64,000 nt of DNA, from assembly GCA_963747095.1 (NCBI GenBank), contig CAVVEL010000022.1, forward strand, positions 3,959 through 67,958. The letters are read 5' to 3'. This DNA comes from Terriglobia bacterium (GTDB taxonomy: Bacteria; Acidobacteriota; Terriglobia; JAJPHL01). The position numbers and the translations under genes were made by a program. Every line of letters starts with the position of its first letter. The stretch's first letter is position 1. Below the pieces are notes generated by a model, which was not told the DNA's origin, made no database searches, and was given only the letters and a program-made list of their open reading frames with translations. Positions 1,555-60,071 of the stretch are shown here, in pieces.

Positions 1555-1573
1555 TGATATCTAATACATCAGA
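1555..1573. promoter_or_regulatory. AT-rich recurrent motif, site 1 (TGATATCTAATACATCA) between the divergent MFS and IolB-like genes
   Basis: Seen directly. Member of the 12-copy TGATAT-N5-ATATCA family. A TAATAC hexamer ends 7 nt before the ATG at 1575, so the transcript may be leaderless. Confidence 0.45.
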
Positions 1574-1574
1574 C

Positions 1575-2342
1575 ATGACTCCAGCCGTCAAACCAGCCAA
1601 ACGATTTCCGGCGGATTCCGCCACCGCCGTCTACCGCCAGCGCTTTACACCGGCGGCGGCCAACCTGCTCTTTCTCAGTTGGGGAGAGTTCGATGTGCCG
1701 GGCGGAGGCGCGTCGGGAGAAACGACGATTCTTGGGCAGGAGATCCTTCTGTTCATGTGGAAAGGCTCGGCCGAGGTTCACGTGGCCGACGCGGTTTACG
1801 ACTTGCAGCCGTACGACACTTTGTATGTCACCCGCGACTTGCCTTTCCGGATCGTCAATCCCGGCCCCGATCGCGCCGTGGTTTTGCAGGCCTCTGCGCC
1901 GGCGGAGAAACGGCATCCCGTCTTCCATTCGCGCTTCACGGAATTTTCGAAGTGCGAGGAGCGCATCCGCCACCTCAAGGGCAAAGACGTTTACATGATG
2001 TTCGATGTCAGCGAGGGCGCCGACAAGCTGATCGCCGGATATACGTTTTTCCAGCCTTTCCAGAGATCCTGGCCGCCGCACAACCACACCGATCAGGAAG
2101 AAGCGTACTTCTTCATCAAGGGGCACGGTTCCATGGAGGTTTATGAATCGCCCGAGACGTTGAGCTTTGTGCACAACGTGCAGGAGGGCGACGTGGTGAC
2201 CATTCCGATGCTCAACTATCATCCGGTTTTTTCGCAAGAAGACCCGCTGGAGTTCATCTGGTGCATCGCCGGCGAGCGATATTGGGTGGGCGACAAGAAC
2301 AAGGCGTTCATGAATGGTACAGGACCTGCCATTACCACGTAG
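1575..2342 (+). CDS. bicupin sugar isomerase, IolB (5-deoxy-glucuronate isomerase) / KduI-like
   Basis: Start is ATG 1575 rather than the track start 1554. Cupin motif WPPHNHTDQEEAYFFIKGHG and VVTIPMLNYHPV resemble the IolB/KduI families. Family-level call only. Confidence 0.5.
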   Translation: MTPAVKPAKRFPADSATAVYRQRFTPAAANLLFLSWGEFDVPGGGASGETTILGQEILLFMWKGSAEVHVADAVYDLQPYDTLYVTRDLPFRIVNPGPDRAVVLQASAPAEKRHPVFHSRFTEFSKCEERIRHLKGKDVYMMFDVSEGADKLIAGYTFFQPFQRSWPPHNHTDQEEAYFFIKGHGSMEVYESPETLSFVHNVQEGDVVTIPMLNYHPVFSQEDPLEFIWCIAGERYWVGDKNKAFMNGTGPAITT

Positions 2343-3549
2343 CGCCGCCCCCGCGGATCTTCGGGGCAATCTGCTGGTGGCTCACGGCGGAGGTCCCACG
2401 GCCGTGATCAACTCATCGCTCTATGGTGTGATCCAGGAGGCATCCGGCCTGGAAGCGATCGACGGCGTTTATGGTGCGCGGTTCGGAACCGCGGGGTTGC
2501 TGAGCGGCGATTGGATTGATCTGCGCCGCCAGCCGCAGGAACAGGTCGAGGCACTGAAGCACACTCCCGCGTCGGCTTTAGGCAGCAGCCGACGAACCAT
2601 CGAAGACGGTGACTACGAATGCATCTTGGATCATTTTCGCCGCCAGGATGTCCGCTTCTTCCTGTTCAACGGCGGTAACGGAACCATGCTGGCCGCGGCC
2701 GAACTGGCGCGGCGGGCCGTTGCACAAGGCTATGAGTTGCGGGTGATCGGAATCCCCAAGACCGTGGACAACGACTTGGCGGGAACGGATCATGCCCCCG
2801 GCTACGGCAGCGCGGCCCGCTACATGGCCGTGACGGCTCTGGAGTTGGGCCGCGACAACCAGGCTCTTCCCTTTCCCGTTTGTATCTTCGAGGCCATGGG
2901 ACGAAACACCGGATGGCTGGCGGCGGCATCCACGCTGTTTGCGCGCCACGCCGATGATGGACCGCAACTGGTTTACGTGCCGGAGATTCCTTTTCACCGT
3001 GAGCAATTCCTGGCGGACGTGGAGGCAACGTACCGGCGCACCGGGCGCGCCTTCATCGTGGTGAGCGAAGGAATCCGCGACGAGCAAGGCGAGTTGTTTG
3101 TAACCTCGCTGGCCACCGATCGGGATGGATTTGGGCGGCCTCTGCCGGGCAATGTCTCGGTGCACCTGGCGGGTTTGGTGGGAAAGGAATTGCGGCTGCG
3201 TGTACGCAACGAAAAGCCCGGATTGTGCGCCCGCACTTCCATGGCGCATGTGTCGGCGACGGATCGCGCCGAAGCGGAAGAGTGCGGCCGCTATGCGGTG
3301 CGCGCGGCTGTCGCGGGGAACAGCGGCATGATGGTCAGTCTACGGCGCGCGTCCTATGATTCCGATTCCTCCCATACTTCCTATTGCTGTGAATACGCGT
3401 TAACGCCGCTCGACGATGTCGCCGGCCGCGAACAGCGCTTGCCAGTGGAATGGTTCAACGCAGAAGCCCGCCAACCAGGCCGGGCATTCTACGATTATGC
3501 CTTGCCGTTAACGGGCGATGACATTCCGCGGCACGCGCGCTTCAATTAA
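2314..3549 (+). CDS. pfk: 6-phosphofructokinase (PfkA family, ATP- or PPi-dependent)
   Basis: GGGPTAVINSSLYGV and IGIPKTVDNDL are hallmark PfkA motifs. About 29-nt overlap with the upstream gene. Confidence 0.8.
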   Translation: MVQDLPLPRSAAPADLRGNLLVAHGGGPTAVINSSLYGVIQEASGLEAIDGVYGARFGTAGLLSGDWIDLRRQPQEQVEALKHTPASALGSSRRTIEDGDYECILDHFRRQDVRFFLFNGGNGTMLAAAELARRAVAQGYELRVIGIPKTVDNDLAGTDHAPGYGSAARYMAVTALELGRDNQALPFPVCIFEAMGRNTGWLAAASTLFARHADDGPQLVYVPEIPFHREQFLADVEATYRRTGRAFIVVSEGIRDEQGELFVTSLATDRDGFGRPLPGNVSVHLAGLVGKELRLRVRNEKPGLCARTSMAHVSATDRAEAEECGRYAVRAAVAGNSGMMVSLRRASYDSDSSHTSYCCEYALTPLDDVAGREQRLPVEWFNAEARQPGRAFYDYALPLTGDDIPRHARFN

Positions 3550-3704
3550 CAGCCCTCTTGGGAAACCGCTGTTGCAGGCACACGACTTACCCTCCGCGAA
3601 CTCTCGAAAATGGTCGAAAAGCGGCGGGAACTGCGAAAGTTAGGATAGACCAAGCCAACGGGACCCCAATCGACCGGGACTCCGGTGTCGTCAGAAGGAC
3701 TGCT

Positions 3705-3840
3705 GGTGGGCACGTCGAGCCCCTGAACATCACCGCAGCGGTACAACTCGCGAGCGAACTCGGTCCCGGCAAGATCGTCACGACGGTGGTAGCGGACACG
3801 GGACTGAAATATCTCGCCGGCAACCTGCTTGCCAAGGCAA
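3705..3840 (+). pseudogene. 3' remnant of a cysteine-synthase/CBS-like PLP enzyme gene
   Basis: The translation NITAAVQLASELGPGKIVTTVVADTGLKYLAGNLL matches only the C-terminal ~45 aa of CysK-type enzymes (GISSGAA...IVVILPDTGERYLST). No upstream body. It sits in a read-through ORF (3558-3962) between pfk and the IS element. Confidence 0.35.
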
Positions 3841-4115
3841 AACTCGGCGCCGGCGGTCCTGCGGATCAGATTCGCTCGTGCAACGGGTTTTGCCGCGCCT
3901 CCAAACGCTATTACCGATGCGCTATTCCCACATACGCCGTCCTAAAGGCATTGGCCCCATAGAATCAGGGAATTAGCCTCGGCTCAGGCGACCTTCAGAA
4001 ATAGCACAAATCTGGCTCAAATAAGCTTCAGGCAAAGTTTCCCCAACCGCCAAGACTTCCTCGGCACCCAGGCCTGATTGTCGTTCCTACGCGCTACTGC
4101 GCGAAGGAGATGACG

Positions 4116-4199
4116 ATGAAGAAGCTTCAGATGGTTCTGGGCAGTTTGTTCCTGGTTTTGGCGCTCGCACAGATGGAGAACGCACAAACCGTTGTTCCA
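4116..4199 (+). pseudogene. 5' fragment (RBS + signal peptide) of a secreted retropepsin-like aspartic protease gene, cut by the IS630 element
   Basis: AGGAG RBS 6 nt before ATG 4116. MKKLQMVLGSLFLVLALAQMENAQTVVP is a Sec signal. The reading frame is interrupted exactly where the IS terminal inverted repeat starts. Confidence 0.45.
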
Positions 4200-5439
4200 T
4201 TCAAACTAGTGTATCGTTTCATTAAAATATCATCTCATCAAGAGACTCCGAACTTCCTCCACCGGTGGACCACGGGGGCCGCATTGATCTCGGCGATGCC
4301 CAGCAGGATACGGTCTCGCAACTCTTCCCAGGAGTGGACCCGAATGTGCTTGAGGAAAGTCCGCGCCATCTTGCCAAATAGACTCTCGACGATATTGAGC
4401 CAGGACCCATGCGTAGGCGTCAGGACGTAGTGGAAACGGTTGGGGCGGGTCGCCAGCCACGCTTGGGTTTCGCGGGAAATGTGCGAGGAGTGATTGTCCA
4501 GGATCAGACGGATGGAGCAGTCCGGCGGATAGTGGTGATCCAGGTCTTGCAGCAGGGCAATGAATTCAATGCTGCGATGGCGCCGCTCGACGCGCGCCGT
4601 AACGTGCCCGTCGTGCAGATCCAAAGCCGCCAAGATCGAGCAGGTCCCCAAGCGTTTGTATTCGTGGTCGCGGGTGACCGTGGGATGCTTGCCGGCAACG
4701 GGGGGCAGGTCTGGCGCGGTGTTGGCGATGGCCTGCAAGCCGGGTTTCTCATCCACCGAAACCGTGACCACCGGCAGGATCTGGTCGGAGGCTTGGCGCC
4801 CTTCATTCCGCAGGGCCACCGCTTGGTAGACCAGCAGGACATTGCGCATCTTCTCTTCAAACCGCGGGTCGCGCCGCTCCAGATAGTATTGGATCCGTTC
4901 GGGGTGCAGGGGTTGGTCGGCCAGAATGCGATGGACGGTGGCCTTAACGGCCCTGCCCAGGGAAGGATGGCCAGCCTCCACGGCGTGGGTTCGAACATGG
5001 TTGGCCAGAGCGCTCCGCGTCCACAGTTCGGCCGCATAACCGAGATCTTTTGGTTTCGTGCAAGCCACATGAACCACCCAGACCCGCGCTTCCTCGGTGA
5101 TGACGGGTTCTTTGGGACGATGCCAGGTGTCCTTCAGTGCGGCCAGCGGCCCCATCGCCAACGCTCGGTTGACCCATTTGGCAACGCTCTTTCGCGTTGT
5201 CCCCATGTTTCTGGCAATTCCGGCTACCGTCTCGCCGGCCGCGTAACGCAACAGGATCTGCGCCCGCTGCACCTCCCGGATCGGTGCCTTGGCCGACTGT
5301 CGAATCCGTTGTAGTTGCGCCTGTTGTTCCGGCGTCAGGTTAAGCTTCGGTCGTCGCGATTTGCCTGCCATGCTTTCAGCATAGCAGAAAACAGATCCAA
5401 CAGAATATGTTTTATTGAAACGCTATACTAGTTGACGGC
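4198..5439 (-). mobile_element. IS630-family insertion sequence (~1.24 kb) with imperfect ~28-bp terminal inverted repeats
   Basis: Left end TCAAACTAGTGTATCGTTTCATTAAAATA (4201-) and reverse complement of right end TCAACTAGTATAGCGTTTCAATAAAACA (-5438). Single transposase ORF inside. Local GC is lower than the flanks. No clean TA target duplication could be identified. Confidence 0.7.
4238..5371 (-). CDS. IS630-family DDE transposase
   Basis: N-terminal HTH (RAQILLRYAAGETVAGIARNMGTTRKSVAKWVNR) and C-terminal LILDNHSSH...LTPTHGSWLNIVESLF signature of IS630/Tc1-like DDE_3 transposases. Confidence 0.85.
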   Translation of the reverse strand: MAGKSRRPKLNLTPEQQAQLQRIRQSAKAPIREVQRAQILLRYAAGETVAGIARNMGTTRKSVAKWVNRALAMGPLAALKDTWHRPKEPVITEEARVWVVHVACTKPKDLGYAAELWTRSALANHVRTHAVEAGHPSLGRAVKATVHRILADQPLHPERIQYYLERRDPRFEEKMRNVLLVYQAVALRNEGRQASDQILPVVTVSVDEKPGLQAIANTAPDLPPVAGKHPTVTRDHEYKRLGTCSILAALDLHDGHVTARVERRHRSIEFIALLQDLDHHYPPDCSIRLILDNHSSHISRETQAWLATRPNRFHYVLTPTHGSWLNIVESLFGKMARTFLKHIRVHSWEELRDRILLGIAEINAAPVVHRWRKFGVS

Positions 5440-6195
5440 TATGTGATTATCGTGCAGGGAAGCATCGGAAACCTGGAGAGGCTGAGCTTTATTGTGGACA
5501 CCGGCACCTTCCCCACGGTGATTGACTCCGGCGTGACCGCCAAACTCGGCTTGCATGGCAAGCCGGATGCGGTGAAAGGCTTCGCGGCGAATGGGGTTGG
5601 TGAGAGGCTGACACTCCCCGGCTTGCACCTGGGGTCGGTAGATGCCGATGACCTCCCCGTCATTTCGTTTGATCTTTCGTACCTCCAAAAGGCACTTGGG
5701 GTCCACATTGACGCGTTGGTCGGGCCGGATGTGCTCAGCCGCGCCGGCACCTTCAAGATTGATTATCAGTCGCGCACGCTGGCGTTCGGCGACCAGCCGT
5801 CGTATGGACCAACGGCCTTGAGCCGCCCGTCGGCGCGGATGACTCCGGTGCCGTTCGAGAACCTGGGCATCATTAACGTGCAGGTGGGATATGCCGCTCT
5901 GCGGTTGCTCATGGACACGAGAACTGGCCAGTTTGTTCTTTTCAACAGCGGCAAGGCCCTGGAGATTGGCGGGACCCGCGTAATCGCCGCGAATACCTCG
6001 CGGGGAGATTTCAAGCATGACCGCGTTCAGCTTCCTCCCGCTCGTGTTGGAGACACAGATCTGGGGATGCCCATCGCGGTCGTCGATTCGTCTCCTCACT
6101 CGCCCTTGATTGATGGCGTCTTGGGTCCCGCGTCGCTCAAGGTTCGCAGCGTGGAATTCGATTACAACCACGGCTTGGTCTCTTGGGTGAGGTAA
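5440..6195 (+). pseudogene. 3' part of the IS-disrupted retropepsin-like (clan AA) aspartic protease gene
   Basis: VIIVQGSIGNLERLSFIVDTGTFPTVIDS carries the D-T-G aspartic protease motif. Joining 4199|5440 restores an in-frame signal-peptide + protease protein (...AQTVVP|YVIIVQG...). Confidence 0.5.
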
Positions 6196-6278
6196 GGAAG
6201 AAGAAGCGATCCACAGATTCCGCAGATTTCGCAGATGAGAACAAGAAGCAGATTAGAACAAGAAAAGGATTAGCCGTT

Positions 6279-6345
6279 GATCAACACGGATCAAACGCGG
6301 ATCAACGCGGATCACATCGATTTCTTCGTTGGTTTGATCCGCGTT
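6279..6345. repeat. four tandem ~10-11-bp repeats (GGATCAAnnCG) plus an inverted copy forming a 12-bp perfect stem (CAACGCGGATCA...TGATCCGCGTTG), upstream of the CadC-like regulator gene
   Basis: Seen directly in the low-GC region 6196-6500, which also contains GCAGAT and AGAACAAGAA repeats. The 10-11-bp periodicity is typical of winged-helix (OmpR/CadC-type) binding-site arrays. Confidence 0.5.
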
Positions 6346-6501
6346 GCTCCTTGCAAGTACGTGGCTGGTTTCTTCTTAATCCGCGAAATCTGTGGAATGT
6401 GTGGACGGGTTCTTTCGACCTGCGGTTTATATTTGCGCTCCCAAAGCTGGTACCTGGGTGTATGATGGCGGCATCGATTTGACAGACTGGGAGTCCGCGA
6501 A

Positions 6502-8632
6502 GTGGAGAGCGAGTTTCAGATTGGGACGTGGCTGGTTCAGCCGGACCTGAACTGCATCGTGGACAATGGCCGCAGGGTGCGCCTCGAGCCGAAGACGATG
6601 GAGTTGCTGGTCTGCTTGGCTTCGAGCGCGCCACAGGTGATGAGCAAGGAAGCACTGCTGGCCACGGTGTGGTCGGGGACCTTTGTCGGCGATGATGCGC
6701 TGACGCACGCCATATTCGAATTGCGCAAAGCGCTGGGCGACGACGCGCGCGAATCACGCGTGATCGAGACCATTCCCAAGCGTGGCTATCGCCTCAGTGC
6801 GCCAGTCCTACGCACCCACGGCCAGGATGCCAGTGCCACTGGGCCCGCAATCGCGCCAAGCCCCGCGTGGCGCCGCGGATTGCCGTGGGCAGTTGTCGGC
6901 GCGCTGGCGGGAGTCCTGATTGCTGCTGCCCCCATTTCTGCTGCTGCGACCGTCCGCACCCGCCAAGCCCGCGCCGCTGATCCATTTTGTCATTACGCCG
7001 CCGCCGGATGCACCGATCACCGGCGCTCTCGCGATCTCGCCGGATGGCAGTGAGATTGTCTACAGGAGTGAGTACCACGGACAGGCGCGTTTGTACTTGC
7101 GCTCGCTGGACAATCCCATCGTCAAGCAGATTCCTGGAACCGAAGACGCAACCCGCCCTTGTGTCTCGCCGGATGGGAAATGGGTTGCGTTCGTTGTTCC
7201 TGATCTTGGAAAGCGCGACGGGGAAGCAGAGGCCAGGGATACGCCGATCTACAAAGTACCTGTAGCGGGTGGAGAAAGGGTTTTGATCGCAAGGCCGGAT
7301 GGTGTTGTCGGCGGATTAAGCTGGACTTTGGACGGCATCCTCGCCGGCACGAAGCGGGGGATCTTTCGTTTGGCTTCGGCCGGGGGCGAACCAAAGCGAT
7401 TGACACAAGTGCAAAAAGGGGAAGACTGGCATGCAGCGCCGCAACTGCTTCCGGGCGGAAGGGCACTGCTGTTCACGATTGTCGGGTCTGGGTCTCCCCG
7501 GGCACAACGGGTAGCGCTCAAGGAGTTGCCTGACGGGCAACCGCGCGTGCTTCTCGAAAATGCATCTGGCGCGCGCTATCTCCCTATAGGGGAATTGCTT
7601 TTCAACCGCCGGGGACGGCGATACGCCGTGCCATTCGATCTGGAACACCTTCAGCTTGCAGGAACGCCTTGGCCGGTTTCGAGTCCGGATGGGCCGATGT
7701 CGGAGAACGGCACGCTCGCCTACACCTCGCCGGCGGCAGAAACCAAAACCGAAGCGGTGTGGGTGAACCGGCAAGGGCTTGCGTACCCCGTTTCGTCCTC
7801 GCTACCTCAGGGCGCGATGGCGGGCCCGGAGATTTCGCCCGATGGACGACGCATGGCTTTTCTCCAGGGAGACGGTATCTGGACGTTTGACTTTGAGCGC
7901 GAAGTGCCTGCGCTTCTTGTTTCCGACCCCACTATTGAACCACCCGTCTGGACGCCGGATGGTCACCGGCTCGCCTATACCAGGCAAGGATCTGTCTATT
8001 GGCGGCCGGTTGACGGGAGCGGCCCGGAAGAGCGGCTCGCGCGGCCGGACAACACCGGACGCAGAGGTACCCAATATCCCATATCCTGGTCCCCGGATGG
8101 CCGCGTCCTGGCTTTGACTGACATCGATCTATTTACATTCTTTGACCGCAAGATTCTGCTCTTCTCTTTGGATACCCGCACGCTGCGGCCTTTTCTCCAA
8201 GAACAATTTCACTCGCAGGTCGCCGCTATGTTTTCGCCCGACGGGCACTGGATCGCCTACGTTTCCGATGAATCAGGCCGATGGGAAGTACGGGTGGCTG
8301 CATATCCACAACCGGGACCGCAATTTCAGATCTCGAACGAGGGTGGCGCCGAGCCGCGATGGTCACGCGATGGCCGCGAATTGTTTTACCGCAACGGGCA
8401 AAAAATGATGGAAGTGAGGATTACCACGCAGCCTGCGTTCAACGCTTCCCGCCCGCGGCTGCTATTCGAGGGCTACGAGAACGCGAAAGGGCGGGATGCC
8501 AATTATGATGTTTCACCCGACGGGAAGGAGTTCCTGATGATTCGCGCCACGGGCTCCGCGCCTCCGGGCCAGATCCACGTGGTGCTGAACTGGTTTGAGG
8601 GGCTGAAGAAGGTATTAACGAGTGAGAAGTGA
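6502..8632 (+). CDS. CadC/ToxR-like membrane-anchored transcriptional regulator (OmpR-type winged helix + TM + periplasmic TolB-like PD40 beta-propeller); frameshifted near 6940-6990
   Basis: N-terminus LEPKTMELLVCLASSAPQVMSKEALLATVWSGTFVGDDALTHAIFELRKAL...IPKRGYRL is a trans_reg_C domain, followed by a TM helix. The continuation in the +1 frame (ORF 6920-8632) has PD40 repeats (SPDGKWVAF, SPDGRRMAF, SPDGHWIAY). The frame change lies near a C5 run, so this is either a genuine frameshift or a sequencing error. Confidence 0.6.
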
Positions 8633-8639
8633 AGCTTTC

Positions 8640-8850
8640 CGCTACGGAGCTTGCGACCGATCTGCCTCCGGTCGTTTTCCCGCAATTCGGCAAATCCGAG
8701 TTTCAATCGTCTACCTCGATGACGCATTCCTCCGGCATCACCGGTGGAATGTTTCAATGGAGACGCTCGCCAGCCGGGTCCGGCATTCCTCAACTACGCG
8801 CTGCCGTTAACGGGGCAGACATTCCGCGGCACGCGCACTTCAATTATTCT
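8640..8850 (+). pseudogene. decayed 3' remnant of a second pfk copy
   Basis: 8750-8850 aligns at ~80% nt identity to pfk 3440-3549. This includes the near-identical CCGTTAACGGG..GACATTCCGCGGCACGCGCNCTTCAATTA, but a 1-nt indel shifts the frame. Weaker homology extends to ~8640. Confidence 0.5.
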
Positions 8851-9303
8851 TAGCGCCTTGCTGGATCCACTGGGCGATCAAGTGGTTCTCCGCGGGGCTG
8901 AGACCCTTGCCATACGGGGGCATAGGGTCGCCCGCTCGCGGCTTGGCCGACAACTTATTCATCAGGAAACTGTCGTTGGGGTCGTCGGCCTTTACCAGGA
9001 ATTGTTTGCCCGAAAGCGTTCCCTTCTGATTCACCAGGGTCGTGTAGGCGCGATCCTGGCTGAGGTCCATGCCTGGCCAGTGGTCCTTCTGAAAGTGGCA
9101 GGCCATGCAATGGTCTTGCAGGACCGGTAGCACGTCGCGCCGGAAACTGACCACGCGCGTGCCATGCGCCCCGCCCGGCGAAGCGGCAGCCGGCTTGGCG
9201 GCGGGTTTTGACGTGGGCGCGGACTTTGCCGCGGCAGCTTGCCCGGCGAGCCATCCAGCGCCGCAAAGAAGCATTACGCAGACAGTTGTGATTCCTCTCT
9301 TCA
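8840..9303 (-). CDS. small exported mono-heme c-type cytochrome (PSCyt1-like, CxxCH)
   Basis: Probable start MKRGITTVCVMLLCGAGWLAG is a signal peptide. VLPVLQDHCMACHF (CxxCH) and DPNDSFLMNKLSA...MPPYGKGLSPAENHLIAQWIQQGA resemble the Planctomycete-type cytochrome C domain. Last gene of a minus-strand operon. Confidence 0.55.
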
Positions 9304-10893
9304 TTAGACCTTGTGCTCCGGGTGCTGACACCCCTTGAATTCCGACTCGTACGTGTTGCCCTTGTAGCCCAACTCTTCGATGAGACCTTGCGGCGAAGCG
9401 TAGTATCCCCGCACCACCAGCCCCCGAATGCCGCTGAAGAACTGCATCGCGGGCCGGTCGCGCTCGGCGATGCCTTTGCCCGTGAGGGCGGTCAGGAATT
9501 CGATCCTCTGGGCCGATGACAGCGCGGAAAATGCTTTGCCGTAGTGTTCCGTCACCATTTCCCGGAAGCGCGCCATCTGGCGGCGCGTGGCGTCATAGCG
9601 GTCCGGATCCATCCAGAGCATGAAGTCGGCGTATTCATCGGCGCGAGCCGCCAATGCTCCCGGCGTGTTGGTGACCGGGACAATGGTATCGGCCAGCGCC
9701 GACACGTCGCGATATTCTTCCGGGGTAAAGAAGAGCGGCGCGAAGTTGGGATCTTGAGGCGGCAGCGGCGTCACCGGACGGCCGCGATGCTCGCGCATGT
9801 CATGGGTCACGGCCTGCATGGGATTGCTGTTGTCGGTTGGCGCAAACGACGCCGGACGCAGCAAGGCGGCGGGCTGCGTCATGGCCGCGCCTATGACGAC
9901 GAGGTCTTGCAGCAATCCACGGCGGGGATGGTGATGCTCGGCGGGTTCCTCGCGAACTTCCGCTACTTCCGGGCCGGCGGCCTTGATGGCCGCTGCCATG
10001 TGCGGCTCCAGAAACTTGCGGCTTTGCCCGGCGTCCGCTTCGGGAGACTTACGCACATTGTCCTGCTGAACGCTGACCCAACCGTTGTAACTGTATTGCG
10101 CGAGTGCGGTGAGCACGGCCCCGGAGTTGATCTTGCCGGCGCCGGCGGGGGCATCCTGCCAGTCTTTACCGTTGGCCACGCCATCGCGCAAGTGGATGTG
10201 CACGACGCGCTGACCGTAGGCCTTGATCATCGGCACGGGATCGATGCCCAGGCGCGTCAGGTATTGGGTGTCGAAGCAGAGCTTGGTATAACGGCTGTCG
10301 GAAGTGGCGATGATCTTGCGTACGTCGGCGGCTTCCATTTCGCGGAACCGGTAGGCGCAATGCAGGCCGGTCTCTTCATAAACCAGCGCGCCGATTTCCG
10401 ACATGTTGCTGGAATAGACATGGTACGTTGGCGCGTCCTTCGGGGCATCGCCCCAAATGCCTTCCAGCACGAAGATTCCGCAGCCGAGAGATTGCAGCGC
10501 GCGCGCCAGCAGCACGGCGCGGCTGATGTTCTTGATGCGGTCGTCGCGCTTGGCGAAATTGCCGGTCATCGAGGCCGTCACCAGACCAAGACTGTGGGTG
10601 TCCAAGAGCTTCTTGAAGTCATCGGTCTTTTCCCGATAGTCCCACAAGTCGTCCCCGTGGACTTCCACCCAGGTGTAGCCGGCGGCAGCGACGCCGGCCA
10701 GGGCCGCAGGCAGGGCCACGCCCTGCTTGCGCCACGCCGCGGTGGAGCAGGCCAGTTTGAGTCCCCGGCCGGCTTCGCTGGCCGGGTGGAACCCGGTGGC
10801 ATGTTGCGGTTGCGGAGTTTCGGCGATGGCCGAGCCGGCGGCGGCAGCCGTCAGGGCGCTGGACTTCAGGAATTGGCGGCGATTAAATCCCAT
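9304..10893 (-). CDS. Tat-exported fusion protein: xylose-isomerase-like TIM barrel (sugar phosphate isomerase/epimerase fold) + gluconate 2-dehydrogenase subunit 3 (GMC-dehydrogenase small-subunit) domain
   Basis: Twin-arginine signal MGFNRRQFLKSSALTAAAAGSAIA. The TIM-barrel region runs from LKLACSTAAWRKQG to GIDPVPMIKAYGQRVVHIHLRD. The C-terminal ~170 aa (FFTPEEYRDVSALADTIVP...FLTALTG...VVRGYYASPQGLIEELGYKGN) matches the Gluconate_2-dh3 family. Confidence 0.7.
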   Translation of the reverse strand: MGFNRRQFLKSSALTAAAAGSAIAETPQPQHATGFHPASEAGRGLKLACSTAAWRKQGVALPAALAGVAAAGYTWVEVHGDDLWDYREKTDDFKKLLDTHSLGLVTASMTGNFAKRDDRIKNISRAVLLARALQSLGCGIFVLEGIWGDAPKDAPTYHVYSSNMSEIGALVYEETGLHCAYRFREMEAADVRKIIATSDSRYTKLCFDTQYLTRLGIDPVPMIKAYGQRVVHIHLRDGVANGKDWQDAPAGAGKINSGAVLTALAQYSYNGWVSVQQDNVRKSPEADAGQSRKFLEPHMAAAIKAAGPEVAEVREEPAEHHHPRRGLLQDLVVIGAAMTQPAALLRPASFAPTDNSNPMQAVTHDMREHRGRPVTPLPPQDPNFAPLFFTPEEYRDVSALADTIVPVTNTPGALAARADEYADFMLWMDPDRYDATRRQMARFREMVTEHYGKAFSALSSAQRIEFLTALTGKGIAERDRPAMQFFSGIRGLVVRGYYASPQGLIEELGYKGNTYESEFKGCQHPEHKV

Positions 10894-10897
10894 ACAC

Positions 10898-10915
10898 TGA
10901 TATCTAATATCTTAC
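10898..10915. promoter_or_regulatory. AT-rich recurrent motif, site 2 (TGATATCTAATATCTTAC), 4 nt upstream of the ATG of gene 9304-10893
   Basis: Identical 18-mer to site 12. A TTGACA hexamer lies on the minus strand at 10932-10927. This implies a near-leaderless transcript. Confidence 0.45.
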
Positions 10916-11027
10916 TTGCAGGTTGTTGTCAAGTGGCGCAGGCCTTTCGTGGGGCAGGCATCCTTGCCTGCCGTTTTTTCCTGTTCCCAGAGAAAGGCGG
11001 CAGGCAAGGATGCCTGCCCCACTCAAA

Positions 11028-13629
11028 CTACTTTACCGCTTCGGCGCGACGCTCGACCAGAAGCTTTCGAGCCTCGCCATAGAGGCGGCGGACTTCCTGC
11101 TTCTCGGCCTCGTTGTTCCAGTGTATCGGCGAAGACGGCGGGACACCGAGCGTTTTTTGCGCCGCGGAAAACTGGGCCTGTTCGGCCGCGGTCAGGGGCT
11201 TGCCAAAGGCCCGCGCCAGGGAGCGATCCAGCCATTCAATAAGGAAATCTGCGTCCGCGCGAAAGCGCACGGGTTTGCCGTCCACAGTGATCCATACCGG
11301 CATGGTGGCGGCCCAGGGAACGGGCTTGCGGATCGACTTTCCCGTGGGTCTGCTGCGGACGCGCGCCGCCAGCCATCCACTGGCGTCGATCGTCACCGTT
11401 TGTTCAAGGCGAGCCTGCGGATCGCCGCGCGATTCGAGTTTGGCGATCACGTTGCCGTCGCGCAACAGCTCGATGCTTTCAATCGGGGTGTTCGATTCCA
11501 CGTCCACCGTCACATGCAATGCATGCGTTCCCGGCGGCAAGGCGATTTCCTCTCCTGGAATCTTGCCCTCAACGTCCAGGAAAACCAGCGGGCCGGCGGT
11601 GACAAAGCTGTGACCCTCGCGCATCGCTTTCATCCAGCCTTCGTAGTTGAGCCGCGATCCGCTGTGCACGTAGATGCGATTGGTCCCCAGCACGTTGCCG
11701 CGATAAAAATCGCCGAACGTGTCCACGCCGGCCGAGGCCACCAAGTGATAGCCCAGGTTCCAGGCGTGATAAAGCGTATCCATCGTCTCGGGCCAGTTGG
11801 CTTCGATGAAGTCAACTGTGCCGAGCGCCAGGTCTACCGGGAAGTTCGCGCCCGGTTCGTGGGCGTATCCGGTGAGTGCGCCTTCCTCATGACCAACCCG
11901 AAAGGGAACCGTGTTGGGCGGATACATGCTCGCTACCGCCGTGTTGGGATAGCCCACGTAGGTGGGAATGATCAAGTGCTCCTTAAGATTGAGGAACACG
12001 GCGTGTCCCCAGAACGGCGGATGATATTCCTGATTGTGAAAGAGAATCCGTTCTTCCGTCGAGGCCGCATCGGGATGGCCGCTAAAATGGGCTACATCGG
12101 GAATGCGCTGCTCTTTGTTGCAGATCAGATTGTTCAGAATGCTCAGGTCTTCAGCGGCGCTCTGCGCCATGATTGCGACCGGGGAGGTGTGATAGACGCC
12201 GGCGTAATTCATGTGGAAGTGATTGTCGCCGCTCCACCAGCCCTTGGCGGGCAAATCGTCCAGGCGGCGCAGCGGCACGCGAATCTCGGCGGGATGATCG
12301 GCCGGGACATCTGCTTCCGCGTCCGCGGGAAAGTACTCCAACCCATGGGAAACTGTCAGCCGCGTGCGTCCCGGCGGCACGCTAACCTCGAAGGAGCCGT
12401 CCGCGTAAAAGTAGTGATACTCGTCCTTCTCCAGGTGATCCTCAATGAAGGAATCGGCGCGCAACCAGCTTTTATCCGGCGCGTAGGCGCGGCCGTCGGC
12501 GGCCAGCAGATGAATCCGCGCCGGCAGAGGCTTGCCGCTGGCGGCGTCCACGACGGAAACATGCAAGCGGCTCATGGGCCGCTTGTAAACGACCTTCTGA
12601 ATCTCCACCGGCTCCAATTTTCCGCCGAACCAGTAAAACAGCCAGAGCCGCGTGTCGCCGCTCTGATTCGAGACGAAAGCGATGCGGGTTCCGTCCGGCG
12701 ACCATCGCGGCGCGGTGCGGTCGAAATCTCCGTAGGTCAGCGGGAAGGCGTCGCCACCCTTGGTTGGCATGATCCAGAGTTGCTGCCATTGCCCGCCGAG
12801 GTAGGAACTGTAAACTAGTTTGGTTCCATCGGGCGACACCGAGGGCCGCGCCTTCCAGGTAGTTTCTTCATAGTGAAAGCTCCGCATCGGCGCGCCGGGG
12901 CGGGCCTCCATGCGGTAAAAGCCGCCCGATCCGTTGGGATTGTCACGGTCGGAAACCATGATCAACTCGCGGCTGTCCGCAGTCCACACCGGATTGATGT
13001 GCAGCACGCGATCGCCGTAGTAGACACTGGGCGGCGACAAGCGGACCTCGGTGGTCAAGCGCACGGGCGGCCCAGGCTGGCCGTTCGTGAAGCGGATCAC
13101 GTAGATGTGAAACGCCCCGCTGCCCTGGCCGGGAGGTTGCGCGGAAACATAAGCGAGCCTTGTGCCATCAGGCGACCACGCGGGCTCGATGCTGACGGAA
13201 TCGCCGGAGGTGAGTGCGCGCGTTGAACCGGTCTGTACGTTGAGCAGTTGCAGATGAATCTGCTCGTGCTGTTCCGCTGTGTAAACGATCCATTTTCCGT
13301 CGGGCGACCAAGCCGGTTGGGAATCGTAAATGCCGCCGTCCGTCAATTCCTCGGCGACGCCGCTCCCCAGCGTCATACGGAAGATCGATCCCTTCATGGC
13401 GAAGGCTAACTGCTTTCCGTCCGGCGACCACGCCGGATAGTTGGGACCATTCGTCACGGGCGGCAGGTAACATTCCGCTACGTAAGCCATGTCGCCGACG
13501 TGGTCCTGATCGAGAACGCGGGAGAAAAGGCGGCGGCGCATCTGTCCCGGCGCGGGACAGGCGACCACCAGCACCAGCAGCAATGCCGGAAACTGGCGTA
13601 CGACCTTCAGGAAGATGCGCTGTCTCAAT
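11028..13629 (-). CDS. exported TolB-like beta-propeller + PHP-type (CehA/McbA family) metallohydrolase fusion
   Basis: Multiple PD40 repeats (WSPDGKQLAF, WSPDGKWIVY, WSPDGTRLAY, WSPDGTRIAF). C-terminal GWWSGDNHFHMNYAG...FWGH region is typical of PHP/CehA-McbA metallohydrolases. Likely TTG start at 13629 gives the signal peptide MRQRIFLKVVRQFPALLLVLVVACPAPGQ (track start 13688). Confidence 0.7.
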
Positions 13630-13633
13630 TTTG

Positions 13634-14665: not shown

Positions 14666-14710
14666 GATGCAGAACCTCCCTTCACCGGCCGGGAAAACGG
14701 CCTAGGTTCA

Positions 14711-14727
14711 TGATATCTAATATTTCA
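14711..14727. promoter_or_regulatory. AT-rich recurrent motif, site 3 (TGATATCTAATATTTCA), ~46 nt upstream of the Gfo/Idh/MocA gene and just downstream of the gntR stop
   Basis: Seen directly. Confidence 0.45.
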
Positions 14728-14733
14728 GCAGCG

Positions 14734-15462
14734 TCAAGGGAGAACATGCGGAAAGAAGCCCGGACCCGAGCGGGTGTTTAGCCGGCGGCCGCCCCAGCCG
14801 GGTCCTTCCGCGAGGCGGGCTTTTTCTTCGTCCATATCGCTGAGCAGCCGGGCGCGGATCATCTGAATATGCTCGGCCATCAGTTGGGCCGCTTTCTCGC
14901 GACGGCCGGCCTTCAGCTCGTCCAGAATCGCGCGGTGTTGCGGGAGCGCCTGATGACTGGAGAGTTGGAAGGTGCGGTGGCGCAAAATGATCATCTGATG
15001 CTGCATTCCTTGCAGGGCGTTGCGCAGGCGCGTATTGCTATTGGCCTGGGCCAGAATGATGTGGAACAGCGCATCTTCGCGGATGTAGTTGGCTTTATCG
15101 TTTTTCTTCAAAAACCTTTCCGCTCCGACGACGGCCGCTTCCAGGCGTTGGGCGGTTTTCTTATCGAGATCGATGTGACGGACCACGGCGGGTTCCAGCA
15201 ACTCGCGCAATTCGTAAATCTCCTCCACATCGCGGCGGGTCATTTCCACGAGGAAAGCGCCGCGGCGCGGCTGGATCTTGATCAGACCCTCGGATTCCAG
15301 GCGATTGAACGCTTCGCGGATGGGAGACTTGCTGATCCCGAAGCGGCGCGCAAAGAATTCCTCTGTCAGACGGTGGCTGCCGTCAACCTTGCCGTCTAAA
15401 ATAGAGTTGCGGATCAATTTACAAGCGCGTTCAGTCAGACTTTCAGAAACTCGCAGCTTCAC
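14734..15462 (-). CDS. GntR-family transcriptional regulator (FadR subfamily, FCD C-terminal domain)
   Basis: N-terminal wHTH LTERACKLIRNSILDGKVDGSHRLTEEFFARRFGISKSPIREAFNRLESEGLI. C-terminal all-helical domain. Confidence 0.8.
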   Translation of the reverse strand: MKLRVSESLTERACKLIRNSILDGKVDGSHRLTEEFFARRFGISKSPIREAFNRLESEGLIKIQPRRGAFLVEMTRRDVEEIYELRELLEPAVVRHIDLDKKTAQRLEAAVVGAERFLKKNDKANYIREDALFHIILAQANSNTRLRNALQGMQHQMIILRHRTFQLSSHQALPQHRAILDELKAGRREKAAQLMAEHIQMIRARLLSDMDEEKARLAEGPGWGGRRLNTRSGPGFFPHVLP

Positions 15463-15484
15463 TTTTCTTCCTCCTCGTCGAAGA

Positions 15485-15504
15485 TGATATCCAAGATCCT
15501 ATCA
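15485..15504. promoter_or_regulatory. inverted repeat TGATATCCAAGATCCTATCA, 23 nt upstream of the gntR start; candidate auto-operator
   Basis: TGATA/TATCA arms with a 10-nt spacer. Shares the TGATAT half-site with the 12-copy motif. Confidence 0.3.
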
Positions 15505-18330: not shown

Positions 18331-18344
18331 GGAACTCGTGTAGA

Positions 18345-18368
18345 ATATCACATATCAGATGTCAGATG
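18345..18368. promoter_or_regulatory. AT-rich recurrent motif, site 4 (degenerate: ATATCACATATCAGATGTCAGATGA) between the divergent LarA-like and molybdoenzyme operons
   Basis: The reverse complement contains TGACATCTGATATGTGA, which matches TGATATCTGATATATCA with 3 mismatches. Confidence 0.35.
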
Positions 18369-24250: not shown

Positions 24251-24265
24251 ATTGGGCTCCTGTTT

Positions 24266-25972: not shown

Positions 25973-25997
25973 GACATCGAAAATTTCCGCTCATAAG

Positions 25998-27741: not shown

Positions 27742-27743
27742 GC

Positions 27744-30743: not shown

Positions 30744-30760
30744 TGATATCTGATATATCA
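30744..30760. promoter_or_regulatory. AT-rich recurrent motif, site 5 (perfect TGATATCTGATATATCA) between the divergent DUF1080 genes; TGTCAA at 30730-30735 is exactly 8 nt to its left
   Basis: Seen directly. On the minus strand this gives motif-N8-TTGACA-N17-TATCGT-N7-ATG(30699), i.e. a near-leaderless promoter with the motif at about -44 to -60. Confidence 0.5.
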
Positions 30761-33402: not shown

Positions 33403-33419
33403 TAATATCTGATATATTA
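33403..33419. promoter_or_regulatory. AT-rich recurrent motif, site 6 (TAATATCTGATATATTA) between the divergent ceramidase-like and Tat-Gfo/Idh/MocA genes
   Basis: Read rightward it contains TGATATATT (extended -10 like, TGnTATAAT). This is followed by GGAGG at 33428-33432 and ATG 33437. Confidence 0.5.
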
Positions 33420-36466: not shown

Positions 36467-36483
36467 TGATATCTGATATATTA
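36467..36483. promoter_or_regulatory. AT-rich recurrent motif, site 7 (TGATATCTGATATATTA) with TGTCAA 8 nt to its left (36453-36458)
   Basis: Seen directly. Same TGTCAA-N8-motif module as sites 5 and 9. Confidence 0.5.
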
Positions 36484-36514
36484 CCGAAAAAGAGCGAAGG
36501 CCGTTGACAAGAGC

Positions 36515-36531
36515 TGATATATCAGATATCA
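36515..36531. promoter_or_regulatory. AT-rich recurrent motif, site 8 (TGATATATCAGATATCA; the reverse complement of site 5's perfect 17-mer TGATATCTGATATATCA, i.e. opposite orientation to site 7) with TTGACA at 36504-36509 just upstream
   Basis: Two oppositely oriented copies 31 bp apart within the MFS/PSD1 divergent intergenic region. TTGACA-N17-TATCAA sits 26 nt before the ATG at 36557 and its GGAAGGGGG RBS. Confidence 0.5.
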
Positions 36532-48700: not shown

Positions 48701-49127
48701 ACCACTTGATCGCTGCTCACCACCGTGCCCACGCTGGCGTCCTCGTTTTGCAACAGCGGCGCCGCGGAGGTCACAGTGACTTCCTGGCCCATCGTGCCGA
48801 CCTTCACGGTTACGTCAATGCGGGCCTGCTGGTCGATCTGCAGCGTAATTCCGGTGAGCGTCTCGTTGCGAAAGCCCGTCGCCTTGACCGTCAACGTGTA
48901 GGGCCCGTAATCAAGCTCGGGAACACATAGACGCCGGAGCCGTTGGACGGCACGGTCTTGTCCACGTCCGTGGCGGTGTTGTGGACCGTCACCATGGCGT
49001 TGGGGACCACCGCGCCCGTAGTATCGCGCACGGTTCCTGCCAAAGAGGCGTTACCGATCTGCGCAACGGCAGTCGAACAGAAAACAGCAATTGTGATGGC
49101 CAGAAGCCAAGAGGCAGTCCGCTTCAT
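45708..49127 (-). CDS. TonB-dependent outer-membrane receptor of the Acidobacteria CarboxypepD_reg type; reading frame broken twice (near 47085-47100 and 48890-48900)
   Basis: Three consecutive ORFs (48891-49127 signal + CarboxypepD_reg GTVRDTTGAVVPNAMVTV; 47083-48894 plug/barrel; 45708-47063 C-terminal barrel ending in an aromatic residue). Either a pseudogene or sequencing errors. Confidence 0.6.
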
Positions 49128-49232
49128 AACCCAGCCCTCCGTTTGTGTCCGGATTCCACCAGCGATCAGAATCCTGGAATCTGCGGCTAAGGCGGAGCGT
49201 AGCCGGGCTGGAGAGGATTGTCAAGGGAAAAC

Positions 49233-49249
49233 TGATATCTGATATATTA
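49233..49249. promoter_or_regulatory. AT-rich recurrent motif, site 9 (TGATATCTGATATATTA) with TGTCAA 8 nt to its left (49219-49224), ~105 nt upstream of the TonB receptor gene
   Basis: Seen directly. Confidence 0.5.
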
Positions 49250-49337
49250 TCTTTCGGCAGGCCCCCTCGATTTTGGCGATCTCGGCCGGCTAGGGTGGTG
49301 TACCCGAAATTCGGCGCACAAATTCGGAACCGCCATT

Positions 49338-49459: not shown

Positions 49460-49519
49460 AAATAAGTACTCTCTCGCCAATGTCTCCGGTTTTTCTGCGC
49501 GAACTTCAGTTACAGGACA

Positions 49520-50857: not shown

Positions 50858-50917
50858 GTCCGAATGAATACGCGCCGTCCCCCAAGGCGGCGATCGCGAA
50901 CCTTGCGGCTGGATCGC

Positions 50918-50934
50918 TGATATAGTATATATCA
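50918..50934. promoter_or_regulatory. AT-rich recurrent motif, site 10 (TGATATAGTATATATCA; same arms, different spacer) between the divergent amidohydrolase and lactonase genes
   Basis: TATATA ends 6 nt before the ATG at 50938, suggesting a leaderless transcript. Confidence 0.45.
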
Positions 50935-50937
50935 GGG

Positions 50938-52089: not shown

Positions 52090-52099
52090 AGGAGGATTC

Positions 52100-54646: not shown

Positions 54647-54670
54647 CCGCAGGGCCCGGGGAACGGCTCG

Positions 54671-54687
54671 TGATATCTGATATATTA
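54671..54687. promoter_or_regulatory. AT-rich recurrent motif, site 11 (TGATATCTGATATATTA), 57 nt upstream of the first gene of the plus-strand GMC array
   Basis: Read rightward it contains TGATATATT (extended -10 like). Confidence 0.5.
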
Positions 54688-54743
54688 GCAGCGGGTGCTC
54701 GTTCCGGTGTACGATGGTCTCGCGGACCAGGCAAGGAAGAAGC

Positions 54744-56480: not shown

Positions 56481-56497
56481 AGGAAGGACGGACGAAC

Positions 56498-58231: not shown

Positions 58232-58247
58232 AGGAAGGACGAACGAA

Positions 58248-59982
58248 CGTGGCAAAAACTTATGACGTTGTAATCGTGGGATCCGGTGCGGGCGGCGGGA
58301 TGTGCGCCAAGGTGCTGGCGGAAGCCGGCGCGTCGGTGTTGCTGCTGGACGCGGGAGGGCACAACATCGATCGCGACATTCGCCATCACCAGTGGACCTG
58401 GGAACTGCCCTACCGCAATGTGTATCAAGTCGATGAGCCGTATGCGGTGCGCCTGCCGACGGTTCATAACACGCCCGGGCAAGGCGATCGTACTTCGATG
58501 ACGGTCTTCGACGGCAGCGCTCACAACAACTATCTCAACGATCATTTCTGGGTCAAGCGGCGCGACTGGGCTTACACGTTTCCCAAAGACAAGCCGTATC
58601 GCTGGGTGCGCGTACGCGCGCTGGGCGGCAAGACAAATTGTTGGGCCGCCAACACCTGCCGCTGGGGACCGAAGGAGTTTAAGCCGGCCAGCTACGACGG
58701 GTACGATGTGGATTGGCCCATTTCCTACGAGGAAATGGACCCTTGGTACACGAAAACCGAAAATCTGATTGGTGTCTCGGGTCCCGAAACCCATAGCGTG
58801 GATTATCCGAGTGGGGCGTGGCTTCCGCCTATTGCGCCGCGCTGCGGCGAGGTGATCATGACGGCCGCGGCGGCGAGGATGGGCCTGACAGCCTTCGCCA
58901 CACCCAAGGCGGCCATCACGCGCGATTTCAACGGCCGGCCTGCCTGCCACTATTGCGGCTCGTGCAGCCTGGGCTGCGATTCCGGATCGAAGTTTACGAC
59001 GGTCGGCGTTCTGCTGCCGCCCGCGCTGGCGACCGGGCGGCTGGACATCCGCATGAACACCATCGTGCGCGAGGTTCTGCTGGCCAGCGACGGACGGGCG
59101 CGCGGCGTTTCCTATGTGGATCGCTACACATTTCAGGACGGCGAAGCGCTGGGTAAGGTCGTGGTTCTGGCGGCCAGCGCCATCGAAACGGCGCGGATCA
59201 TGCTGAATTCGAAATCGATCAAGTTTCCCAATGGTATCGCCAACAGCAGCGGACAGGTGGGCCGCAACCTGGTGGAGAATCCCACCGCCGCCGCGCACGG
59301 CTACCTGCCGCAACTGGCCGGCCGCGAGTGCATCAACGAGGATGGATGGGCGACGGGCCGGGCCGTTGCCCCCTTCATCAACACCAACGAGCAGAACCGT
59401 TCCAAGAAATTCCTTCGGCGTTTCGAATTCGAGATGAGCGCTGGCTTCGGGATGGGCGCCGGGGGAAGCCAGGGCGGAAAGGTTTTCGGCGAGGCCTACA
59501 AGCGCGACGTGAAGGAATGGTACGGTACCGGGGTCAGCGCCTCAGCTTCCGGCGAGGGCCTTTGGAATCCGAACAATTTCGTGGACCTCGATCCCGAGGT
59601 GAAAGACATCTGGGGAATTCCGGCCGCGAGAATCAGCATGGAATTCGGCGAGAACGAGCGGGCCATGACCAAAGAGATTGTGGAATGGGGTGTGCGGTTG
59701 ATCGAAGCCGCAGGAGGCAAGGTCACCCAAACCCAGGTCTCGACCTCGATTCCCGGCGGGCAAATTCACGAACAGGGCACCTGCCGCATGGGAGACGACT
59801 CCAAGAAATTTGTGACGAACCGTTGGGGACTATGCCACGATGTGCCGAACCTAATGCTGGCGGACGGCTCGCTGCACGTCTCCTGCTCCACCGACAGCCC
59901 CACGTTGACGATTCTGGCCATCGCGATGCGCAACGCCTCGCACCTGGCGGAGATCGTGCGCACCGGCGAGTTGAAAACATAG
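58248..59982 (+). CDS. GMC-family FAD oxidoreductase (array copy 3)
   Basis: GTG start after an identical RBS. MAKTYDVVIVGSGAGGGM. Recent tandem duplicate of copy 2. Confidence 0.85.
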
Positions 59983-60052
59983 CCCACAGCGGCTCGACGC
60001 CGACAGGCGGCGATTTGCCACAGGCCACGCCACAGGCCACGCTTGACAAAAG

Positions 60053-60071
60053 GTAAGATATTAGATATCAG
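60053..60071. promoter_or_regulatory. AT-rich recurrent motif, site 12 (GTAAGATATTAGATATCAG, identical 18-mer to site 2), preceded by TTGACA (60043-60048) and a tandem 12-bp repeat CCACAGGCCACG x2
   Basis: Seen directly. 58 nt upstream of the ATG at 60129. Confidence 0.5.

Follow-up and report, generated by a model that had tools for sequence, protein, structure and literature searches.

Operators of the FadR subfamily of GntR-type transcription factors are A/T-rich palindromes of TKGT and ACMA boxes, separated by 3 nt or, in several groups, by 2 nt, and many of them carry a weaker additional half-site 7–12 nt from the centre, as a comparative study of GntR regulons describes (Suvorova et al. 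2015, PMC4494728). Non-canonical exceptions include NanR, which binds direct TGGTATAW repeats, and BioR, with the site TTATMKATAA (PMC4494728). On the protein side, two residues of the helix-turn-helix domain correlate with the base at the G of TKGT: Arg28 (Arg35 in FadR) goes with G and is disfavored with A/T, while Pro40 avoids G/C (PMC4494728). Here, we analyzed a 64,000-nt stretch of DNA from a Terriglobia bacterium, a soil member of the phylum Acidobacteriota (contig CAVVEL010000022.1; hereafter, the window), in which a 17-bp A/T-rich element occurs in twelve near-invariant intergenic copies. Comparative evidence makes it probable that this 17-mer is the operator of a GntR-family factor of the FadR/FCD subfamily, most likely the one encoded at 14734–15462; that this protein is the very factor bound at the 17-mer is a prediction to which we give somewhat lower confidence. 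As judged from sequence, the element together with its regulon is most likely conventional in kind—a FadR-subfamily operator with a non-canonical AT core, not previously described. A preliminary description of this DNA knew of no account of the element, and the literature likewise yielded nothing relevant on the sequence itself or on GntR regulons of Acidobacteria.

The copies, numbered S1 to S12 from left to right, start at positions 1555, 10898, 14711, 18341/18348 (minus strand), 30744, 33403, 36467, 36515 (minus strand), 49233, 50918, 54671 and 60054 (minus strand). Searching the window with TGATATCTGATATATYA, allowing up to three mismatches and using shuffled sequence as the chance control, returned 17 matches, where 0.03 were expected; this number counts overlapping matches, and near-palindromic sites once per strand. 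The same twelve sites that had been reported before were recovered in this way, and nothing else in the 64 kb matched. For the 13-mer core TGATATNTRATAT with at most one mismatch, 13 matches were found against 0.05 expected. Alignment of the 12 copies in one orientation gave the consensus TGATATCTRATATaTYA, in which T1, A3, T4, A5, T6, A10, T11, A12 and A17 are invariant. Positions 8–17 constitute a 10-bp palindrome (TGAT-AT-ATCA), and positions 1–7 an extra TGATATC box located 7 bp upstream. The conserved block measures exactly 17 bp—with the information content at background by positions 0 and 18, and with the 30-nt flanks showing identities of 0.28 and 0.26, compared to 0.26 for random 30-mers. 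S4 departs from the inverted-repeat form proposed earlier and consists of three direct heptads (TGACATC-TGATATG-TGATATT).

On a gene map drawn from codon-position GC content and Pfam matches, intergenic DNA makes up 5.4% of the window. Every match above 10 bits to a position weight matrix (PWM) of the element falls within this fraction, and none was found in the ~60 kb of coding sequence. The copies lie 1–105 nt from start codons, in agreement with the intergenic, start-proximal placement noted before; the largest distance (S9) holds only when an out-of-frame start at 49127 is recognized for the adjacent outer-membrane protein (OMP) gene. Seven copies, rather than the eight counted initially, are situated between divergent genes (S1, S4, S5, S6, S7, S8 and S10). 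S2 is flanked by two minus-strand genes; the open reading frame (ORF) at 10923–12818 (+) is not favored by codon-position GC. Local GC content was also adjusted, from ~63% to about 60%. S7 and S8 form an inverted pair 31 bp apart, and the 18-mer TGATATCTAATATCTTAC is common to S2 and S12, both as previously described. The PWM scan added a weak 13th site, TGATATCCAAGATCCTA, at 15485–15501. A structured RNA was considered and rejected, as no Rfam family matched anywhere in the window.

The element shares several traits with the N2-spaced operators of FCD-type regulators such as GntR, UxuR, HypR and PrpR (PMC4494728): the same A/T-rich T-G-x-T-N2-A-x-C-A palindrome with a box 7 bp away, the same placement in 5' intergenic regions and divergons, the occurrence of double sites (S7/S8), and a site before the operon of the regulator itself. 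The cognate candidate likewise possesses GntR and FCD domains. Unlike in those systems, the GT/AC pairs are replaced by AT/AT, conservation of the extra box equals or exceeds that of the palindrome, and the regulator of the window has no named NCBIfam equivalog. Compared with the site of E. coli NanR, the TGATATW box of the window differs from TGGTATAW mainly by a G-to-A change, and the three direct repeats of S4 resemble the NanR operator. NanR repeats have a period of 8–9 bp, whereas the period is 7 bp in the window, where most sites mix direct and inverted boxes; moreover, with a score of 49 bits on the NanR model (cut-off 260), the window protein is not a NanR orthologue. The site of BioR resembles the motif in lacking GT/AC. 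E. coli FadR acts as a repressor where its site overlaps the promoter and as an activator at fabA, where the site lies just upstream of the –35 hexamer. The operator studied here also occupies differing promoter positions: at S2, S3, S8 and S12 it falls within the promoter, and at S5, S7 and S9 it precedes the –35 hexamer. The latter sites are centred near –52, compared with about –40 for FadR, and any activation in the window would be hypothetical. With 12–13 sites in 64 kb, the cluster appears to be dense for the FadR subfamily.

The candidate cognate regulator is encoded on the minus strand at 14734..15462 and comprises 242 amino acids, with a GntR winged-helix domain (PF00392, 1e-14) and an FCD domain (PF07729, 2.6e-17). 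It is the only GntR+FCD protein found in the window, and sites surround its gene: S4 precedes the LarA-Aldedh-GntR operon to which it belongs, the weak site at 15485 lies upstream and S3 is located at the 3' end. The protein matches no named NCBIfam equivalog; its best match in the PDB is 7xp0 (1.8e-17), and the closest relatives of known structure are FCD regulators that are themselves uncharacterised. Homologues are numerous (295 in the database at E <1e-20), many of them labelled Terriglobia. Position 28 (Arg35 in FadR) is a Glu and position 40 a Pro. Across 120 aligned homologues, Arg28 was absent throughout (0/120, with G, N, A, E, S or T instead) and Pro40 was universal (120/120); the FadR numbering was transferred by alignment to a FadR sequence and agrees with Table 1 of PMC4494728. 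The lack of Arg28 together with the presence of Pro40 in this clade would fit the occurrence of TGAT in place of TGGT in the element.

Evidence for a link between the 17-mer and this regulator family also came from unrelated genomes. A scan for the exact 17-mer with one genome per species listed at least 119 stretches, which represent a sample and not a census; all counts for foreign loci given below refer to the matches listed. Many of these are chance matches inside genes of AT-rich genomes, with Aminicenantes, other Acidobacteriota, Desulfobacterota and some Bacillaceae being conspicuously over-represented. An all-against-all comparison of the flanking ORFs identified a GntR/FCD family of ~225 amino acids as the dominant neighbor. 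When a hidden Markov model (HMM) was run over all ORFs, the 17-mer was found 5–261 bp upstream of a GntR/FCD start in 29 of the 119 listed loci and directly past a GntR/FCD stop in 5 further loci, with the gene located elsewhere in 8 kb in only 6. The GntR HMM was slightly contaminated by one non-GntR sequence (a 356-amino-acid Ldh_2-like ORF from L006), and two extra matches in L006 were disregarded. GntR/FCD regulators account, by estimate, for well under 1% of genes, so their presence next to a random 17-mer in about 30% of the listed loci would not be expected. The next commonest neighbors were genes for glycyl-radical-enzyme activases and sulfoacetaldehyde acetyltransferase, suggesting that the same operator serves other pathways in those phyla.

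In the foreign loci, the 17-mer often runs on as ...TATATYAGATATCA, yielding a 24-bp perfect palindrome (with the halves TGATATCTGATA and TATCAGATATCA) that contains four TGATA boxes. This 24-bp form, TGATATCTGATATATCAGATATCA, was observed in Desulfobacterota, Desulfurellales, Synergistetes, other lineages and some Aminicenantes (e.g., L034), among others at L003, L005, L012, L019, L053, L054, L116 and L118; it sits behind TTGACA-N6 and adjoins genes for GntR/FCD proteins and sulfoacetaldehyde acetyltransferase (Xsc). Genes for glycyl-radical-enzyme activases, by contrast, are neighbors of the 17-mer chiefly at Aminicenantes-type loci. The loci with the 24-bp palindrome may represent an organosulfonate or glycyl-radical-enzyme regulon with the same operator. 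A longer shared promoter, aaaaaaGCTTGAtttt-N-tcTGATATCTGATATATTAcgactaaat, was seen in high-GC Aminicenantes-type loci (L023, L026, L065, L068, L075, L105, L106, L108 and L114), where it fronts a glycyl-radical-enzyme activase gene opposite a sugar-porter MFS gene.

Co-occurrence was likewise apparent at the loci of closer relatives of the regulator. The motif is present in 9 out of 10 contigs that carry homologues of the window GntR (52–89% identity, plus one Bryobacterales metagenome-assembled genome), usually before the operon of the regulator itself. The closest of these, L122 (89% identity), is syntenic with the window and retains S1, S2, S3 and S4, the last base for base. In L129 (75% identity), five sites are found within 15 kb, four of them matching the 13-mer core against 0.02 expected. 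The Bryobacterales genome (L081), which shows 79% nucleotide identity over a 119-bp gene segment, carries an exact 17-mer that overlaps the stop codon of GntR and precedes a LarA-like gene. At five loci with 52–59% identity (L123, L124, L126, L128 and L130), sites occur before the regulator-containing operon or before Gfo/Idh/MocA and OMP genes; L127 (54%) has one weak site, and no site was found in the insertion-sequence-rich contig L125 (52%). Across the homologue loci, the companions of the regulator include LarA-like, UxaA-type dehydratase, aldehyde dehydrogenase and Gfo/Idh/MocA genes. A metagenome scan for relatives of the regulator returned one weak locus with 33% identity, which was uninformative. 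A control count for the seeded high-GC loci, which gave 43 positions scoring above 17 bits, includes the seeded sites themselves and was not used. As a separate observation, TGATATATAATAC precedes the GntR gene of two homologues with 55–58% identity (at 9933 in L123 and ~9900 in L126); instead of the full 17-mer, this sequence joins one TGATAT box directly to a consensus TATAAT.

Taken together, cross-phylum linkage, homologue co-occurrence and FadR-subfamily architecture support the earlier proposal of a dedicated regulator with the GntR/FadR protein as a candidate. Several points weigh against this assignment. The support for a GntR operator is comparative throughout. The core, TGAT-AT-ATCA, departs from the NyGTNxACNy and TKGT-N2-3-ACMA patterns and lacks the GT/AC pair of most GntR sites, even if its spacing and outer T/A positions do fit a FadR-type palindrome. 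Within the window, conservation is stronger in the left, extra box than in the palindrome's right half, so the true recognition unit could be a direct repeat. The foreign GntRs linked to the 17-mer are 23–31% identical to the window protein, and a specificity shared by descent would be conjectural. Arg28 is present in ~10 of the 39 foreign GntR/FCD proteins adjoining the 17-mer, mainly from Bacillaceae; the large Desulfobacterota/Aminicenantes group lacks this residue and the Bacillaceae group has it, which makes the argument from protein–DNA co-variation partial rather than general. Additionally, L129 and L122 come from the same sample, the source genome may encode paralogous FCD regulators that share the motif, and the position of S5, S7 and S9 upstream of the –35 hexamer is a misfit with simple repression.

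The arrangement of promoter hexamers around the copies falls into distinct geometries. A consensus promoter scan placed TTGACG (14737)-16-TATCAT (14710) on the minus strand across S3. On the same strand, TTGACA (30735)-17-TATCGT (30707) and TTGACA (36458)-18-TACACT (36429) were located at S5 and S7; in both cases, 8 bp separate the motif from the –35 hexamer that follows it. Promoter-like matches were not enriched window-wide (7, 8 and 7 against 5.3–5.6 expected), and only those adjoining S3, S5 and S7 were taken into account. As had been pointed out before, S5, S7 and S9 each have a TGTCAA on their left at a distance of exactly 8 nt; at all three, a perfect TTGACA is followed by a TAnnnT hexamer at 17–18 nt, with the site spanning about –44 to –60. 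In L128 and L130, too, OMP genes are preceded by the motif-8 bp-TTGACA geometry of S9, and on this account the S5/S7/S9-type arrangement is probably functional. The preliminary description had also noticed TTGACA before S2, S8 and S12, and we find it on the transcribed strand with N12 at S2 and N5 at S8 and S12. At S8 and S12, TTGACA-N5-motif puts the end of a box, TATCAN, at –10 with a 17-nt spacer (TATCAA at S8). At S2, TTGACA (10932–10927, –)-N12-motif has a 17-nt spacer as well, with TATTAG at –10 inside the motif—a geometry that predicts a ~4-nt leader and hence an essentially leaderless mRNA, with no Shine-Dalgarno sequence before the fusion gene with a twin-arginine translocation (TAT) signal that follows. 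The leaderless transcripts suggested initially are therefore plausible at S2, whereas S1, S6 and S10 have alternative downstream start codons. Many other start codons of the island also lack an obvious Shine-Dalgarno sequence. In foreign loci, TTGAC was found 5–8 nt upstream of the motif in 16 cases and GTCAA 14–16 nt downstream in 14, and both arrangements put the TATATC/T of the palindrome at –10. The –10-like hexamers pointed out before in the element are correct and probably functionally relevant.

On this basis, a mechanism can be proposed in which one dimer would bind the palindrome, with the extra box recruiting or stabilizing a second dimer. At S2, S3, S8 and S12, where a good –35 hexamer is paired with a –10 hexamer embedded in the motif and the site falls between the two, the bound protein would exclude RNA polymerase and thereby cause repression. 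A small-molecule effector would release the protein; considering the family and the conserved neighbor genes, it would probably be a sugar acid or hydroxy-acid, the kind of ligand used by other FCD regulators. At S5, S7 and S9, the regulator might activate, in the way of FadR at fabA, or interfere with upstream polymerase contacts. Autoregulation would probably proceed via S4, ahead of the LarA-Aldedh-GntR operon, and the weak site at 15485.

The same hexamers raise the question of whether the element is primarily a promoter module, i.e., an extended or bidirectional –10 region read by RNA polymerase and its sigma factor. TGATATATY does resemble TGnTATAAT on one strand, TATCAN and TATATC are present on the other, several start codons in the window lie 1–4 nt from the motif, and the TTGAC and GTCAA spacings in the foreign loci (16 and 14 cases among the matches listed) would fit. 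We nonetheless consider this explanation, which the preliminary description had offered as a promoter/UP-like module, unlikely as the primary one. Seventeen conserved bases far exceed the needs of a –10 region, and orientation and distance are not fixed: S2, S3, S9 and S12 are flanked by a gene on just one side, S11 by a gene on just the opposite side, and the –35 hexamers fall into three classes (N4/5, N12, or N8 on the far side). Furthermore, other 5' regions of the window lack the element in the PWM scan—those of the transposase/CadC-like insertion and of the 22670–27885 block, including the divergent region 26878–27151—and the linkage to GntR/FCD genes would be left unexplained. It is very likely that the operator overlaps real –10 hexamers, so that the operator and promoter readings are compatible.

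An operator for a different regulator, with the GntR protein merely a member of the regulon, is quite unlikely in our estimation. The alternatives would be the CadC-like Trans_reg_C/PD40 protein at 6502–8632, also put forward earlier, or a factor encoded outside the window, given that only 64 kb of the genome is covered here. Within the window, conservation of the element is highest in the direct repeat TGATATC-TGATAT, and winged-helix response regulators bind direct repeats. However, OmpR-type sites typically repeat at 10–11 bp, in contrast to the 7-bp period seen here. Frameshifts disrupt the CadC-like gene, which shares with a DDE transposase a segment that L122 lacks, even though L122 keeps all four sites S1–S4, and both the cross-phylum and the homologue co-occurrence point to GntR/FCD. 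Highly improbable, finally, is an origin from a dispersed miniature mobile element, as its terminal repeat or a remnant, or as a repetitive extragenic palindromic (REP)-like repeat, which the many near-identical, partly palindromic, intergenic copies might suggest. No target-site duplications or paired ends were found around the copies, a result that, together with flanks at background identity, answers in the negative the question of shared flanks and target-site duplications raised beforehand. This candidate was rejected in view of the random flanks, the sharp 17-bp boundary and the conservation at orthologous positions in L122; no Rfam family matched either. A GntR/FCD operator is thus the reading that we retain.

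The individual copies are described in what follows from left to right. S1 (1555..1571, +; TGATATCTAATACATCA, 28.4 bits) separates an MFS gene (282–1520, –) from a KduI-like/PFK operon (1575–3962, +) and is kept in L122 at 14956. S2 (10898..10914, +; TGATATCTAATATCTTA; in L122 at 11711) lies 4 nt 5' of the ATG at 10893 (–) of a TAT-signal fusion of a TIM-barrel and gluconate-2-dehydrogenase subunit 3 (G2DH3). S3 (14711..14727, +; TGATATCTAATATTTCA; in L122 at 8046) is placed 6 nt past the GntR stop and 45 nt upstream of the Gfo/Idh/MocA gene (14665, –) of a Gfo/Idh/MocA-PD40 unit. The weak and putatively autoregulatory 13th site (15485..15501, +; TGATATCCAAGATCCTA, 14.8 bits) is found 22 nt upstream of the GntR start codon, GTG 15462, and is partly kept in L122 as TGATAGACTCTGGCATATCA. 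S4 (18341..18364, –; its three heptads followed by CTA) is identical in L122 at 4427–4450 and stands between the LarA-like/Aldedh/GntR operon (start 18330, –) and a Fer4-NrfD/molybdopterin oxidoreductase unit (18400, +).

Further along the window, the consensus copy S5 (30744..30760, +; TGATATCTGATATATCA) is flanked by a DUF1080/GMC operon (ATG 30699, –) and a DUF1080 gene (30774 or 30792, +), while S6 (33403..33419, +; TAATATCTGATATATTA, 30.8 bits) has a ceramidase-like gene (33401, –) and Gfo/Idh/MocA plus RidA (33437, +) on its two sides. S7 (36467..36483, +; TGATATCTGATATATTA) lies 8 bp upstream of the –35 hexamer of an MFS gene (35119–36378, –). Its inverted partner S8 (36515..36531, –; TGATATCTGATATATCA) has TTGACA at 36504–36509 (+) on one side and a PSCyt2/PSD1-DUF1501-S9-DeoC-DegT operon on the other. 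S9 (49233..49249, +; TGATATCTGATATATTA) is positioned 105 nt upstream of the OMP start 49127 (–), with TTGACA at 49224–49219 (–) 8 bp away. The near-symmetric variant S10 (50918..50934, +; TGATATAGTATATATCA), scoring 24.2 and 23.5 bits on the two strands, lies between an amidohydrolase gene (ATG 50857, –) and a lactonase/PD40 gene (50938, +). S11 (54671..54687, +; TGATATCTGATATATTA) is 26 nt upstream of a three-gene GMC oxidoreductase operon (54714, +), with no gene on its other side; TGATATATT within this copy resembles an extended –10 when read towards the GMC operon. At S12 (60054..60070, –; TGATATCTAATATCTTA), TTGACA at 60043–60048 (+) is followed by the motif and then by a PSCyt2/PSD1-DUF1501-DUF1800 operon (60102, +).

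In total, the sites precede ~17 transcription units that hold roughly 38 of the 45 genes in the window. According to Pfam, these genes encode, among others, GMC oxidoreductases, Gfo/Idh/MocA and DUF1080 proteins, TIM-barrel/G2DH3 fusions, MFS transporters, an OMP, PSCyt2/PSD1-DUF1501 pairs (two sets, one with DUF1800), a lactonase and an amidohydrolase. The TonB-dependent-like OMP_b-brl_4 gene (45708–49127, –) contains at least two frameshifts and is split at 47063/47083; its true start, ATG 49127 (MKRTASWLL...), with a signal peptide and the beginning of a CarboxypepD_reg domain, is out of frame with the rest. The gene is either a pseudogene or the product of an assembly error. A segment of ~5.3 kb at 3962–9304 comprises a DDE_3 transposase, an aspartyl-protease-like ORF and the frameshifted Trans_reg_C+PD40 (CadC-like) gene; given that the syntenic relative L122 lacks it, this segment is probably an insertion. 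At 25998–26878 (–), a GMC_oxred_C fragment of 106 amino acids adjoins an ORF that matches no family, and the two look like what is left of a GMC oxidoreductase paralogue after decay. Lastly, a perfect hairpin, GGCAGGCATCCTTGCCTGCC, at 10953–11018 is terminator-like on both strands and lies between S2 and the 3' end of a PD40/Tricorn-like gene.

A wider reading, which we put forward only tentatively and regard, as a joint claim, as doubtful, would take the TGATAT-heptad operator to define a broad, unrecognised specificity class of FCD-type GntRs. Such a class would have lost the Arg–G contact and would read arrays of two to four TGATATN boxes with a 7-bp period, with members in Acidobacteriota (including Aminicenantes), Desulfobacterota, Synergistota and others. 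Since –10 hexamers are present on both strands, each copy would serve as a portable promoter-plus-operator cassette, and a single regulator would have captured at least 17 transcription units—the enigmatic PSCyt2/PSD1-DUF1501 pairs among them—acting as a repressor at some and as an activator at others.

We found no described transcription-factor regulon with this motif for Acidobacteriota in the literature, and an operator–regulator pair with 12–13 sites offers an experimentally tractable entry point. The combination of an AT-for-GT operator with the loss of Arg28 provides a natural test of the recognition rules proposed for the GntR family. The regulon groups DUF1080/3-keto-disaccharide hydrolase-like proteins, PSCyt2/PSD1 proteins with DUF1501/DUF1800, TIM-barrel/G2DH3 fusions and a LarA-like racemase with sugar oxidoreductases of the GMC and Gfo/Idh/MocA types, with transporters and with an outer-membrane receptor. 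Their co-regulation suggests that these genes may belong to one periplasmic system for the oxidation of carbohydrates or sugar acids.

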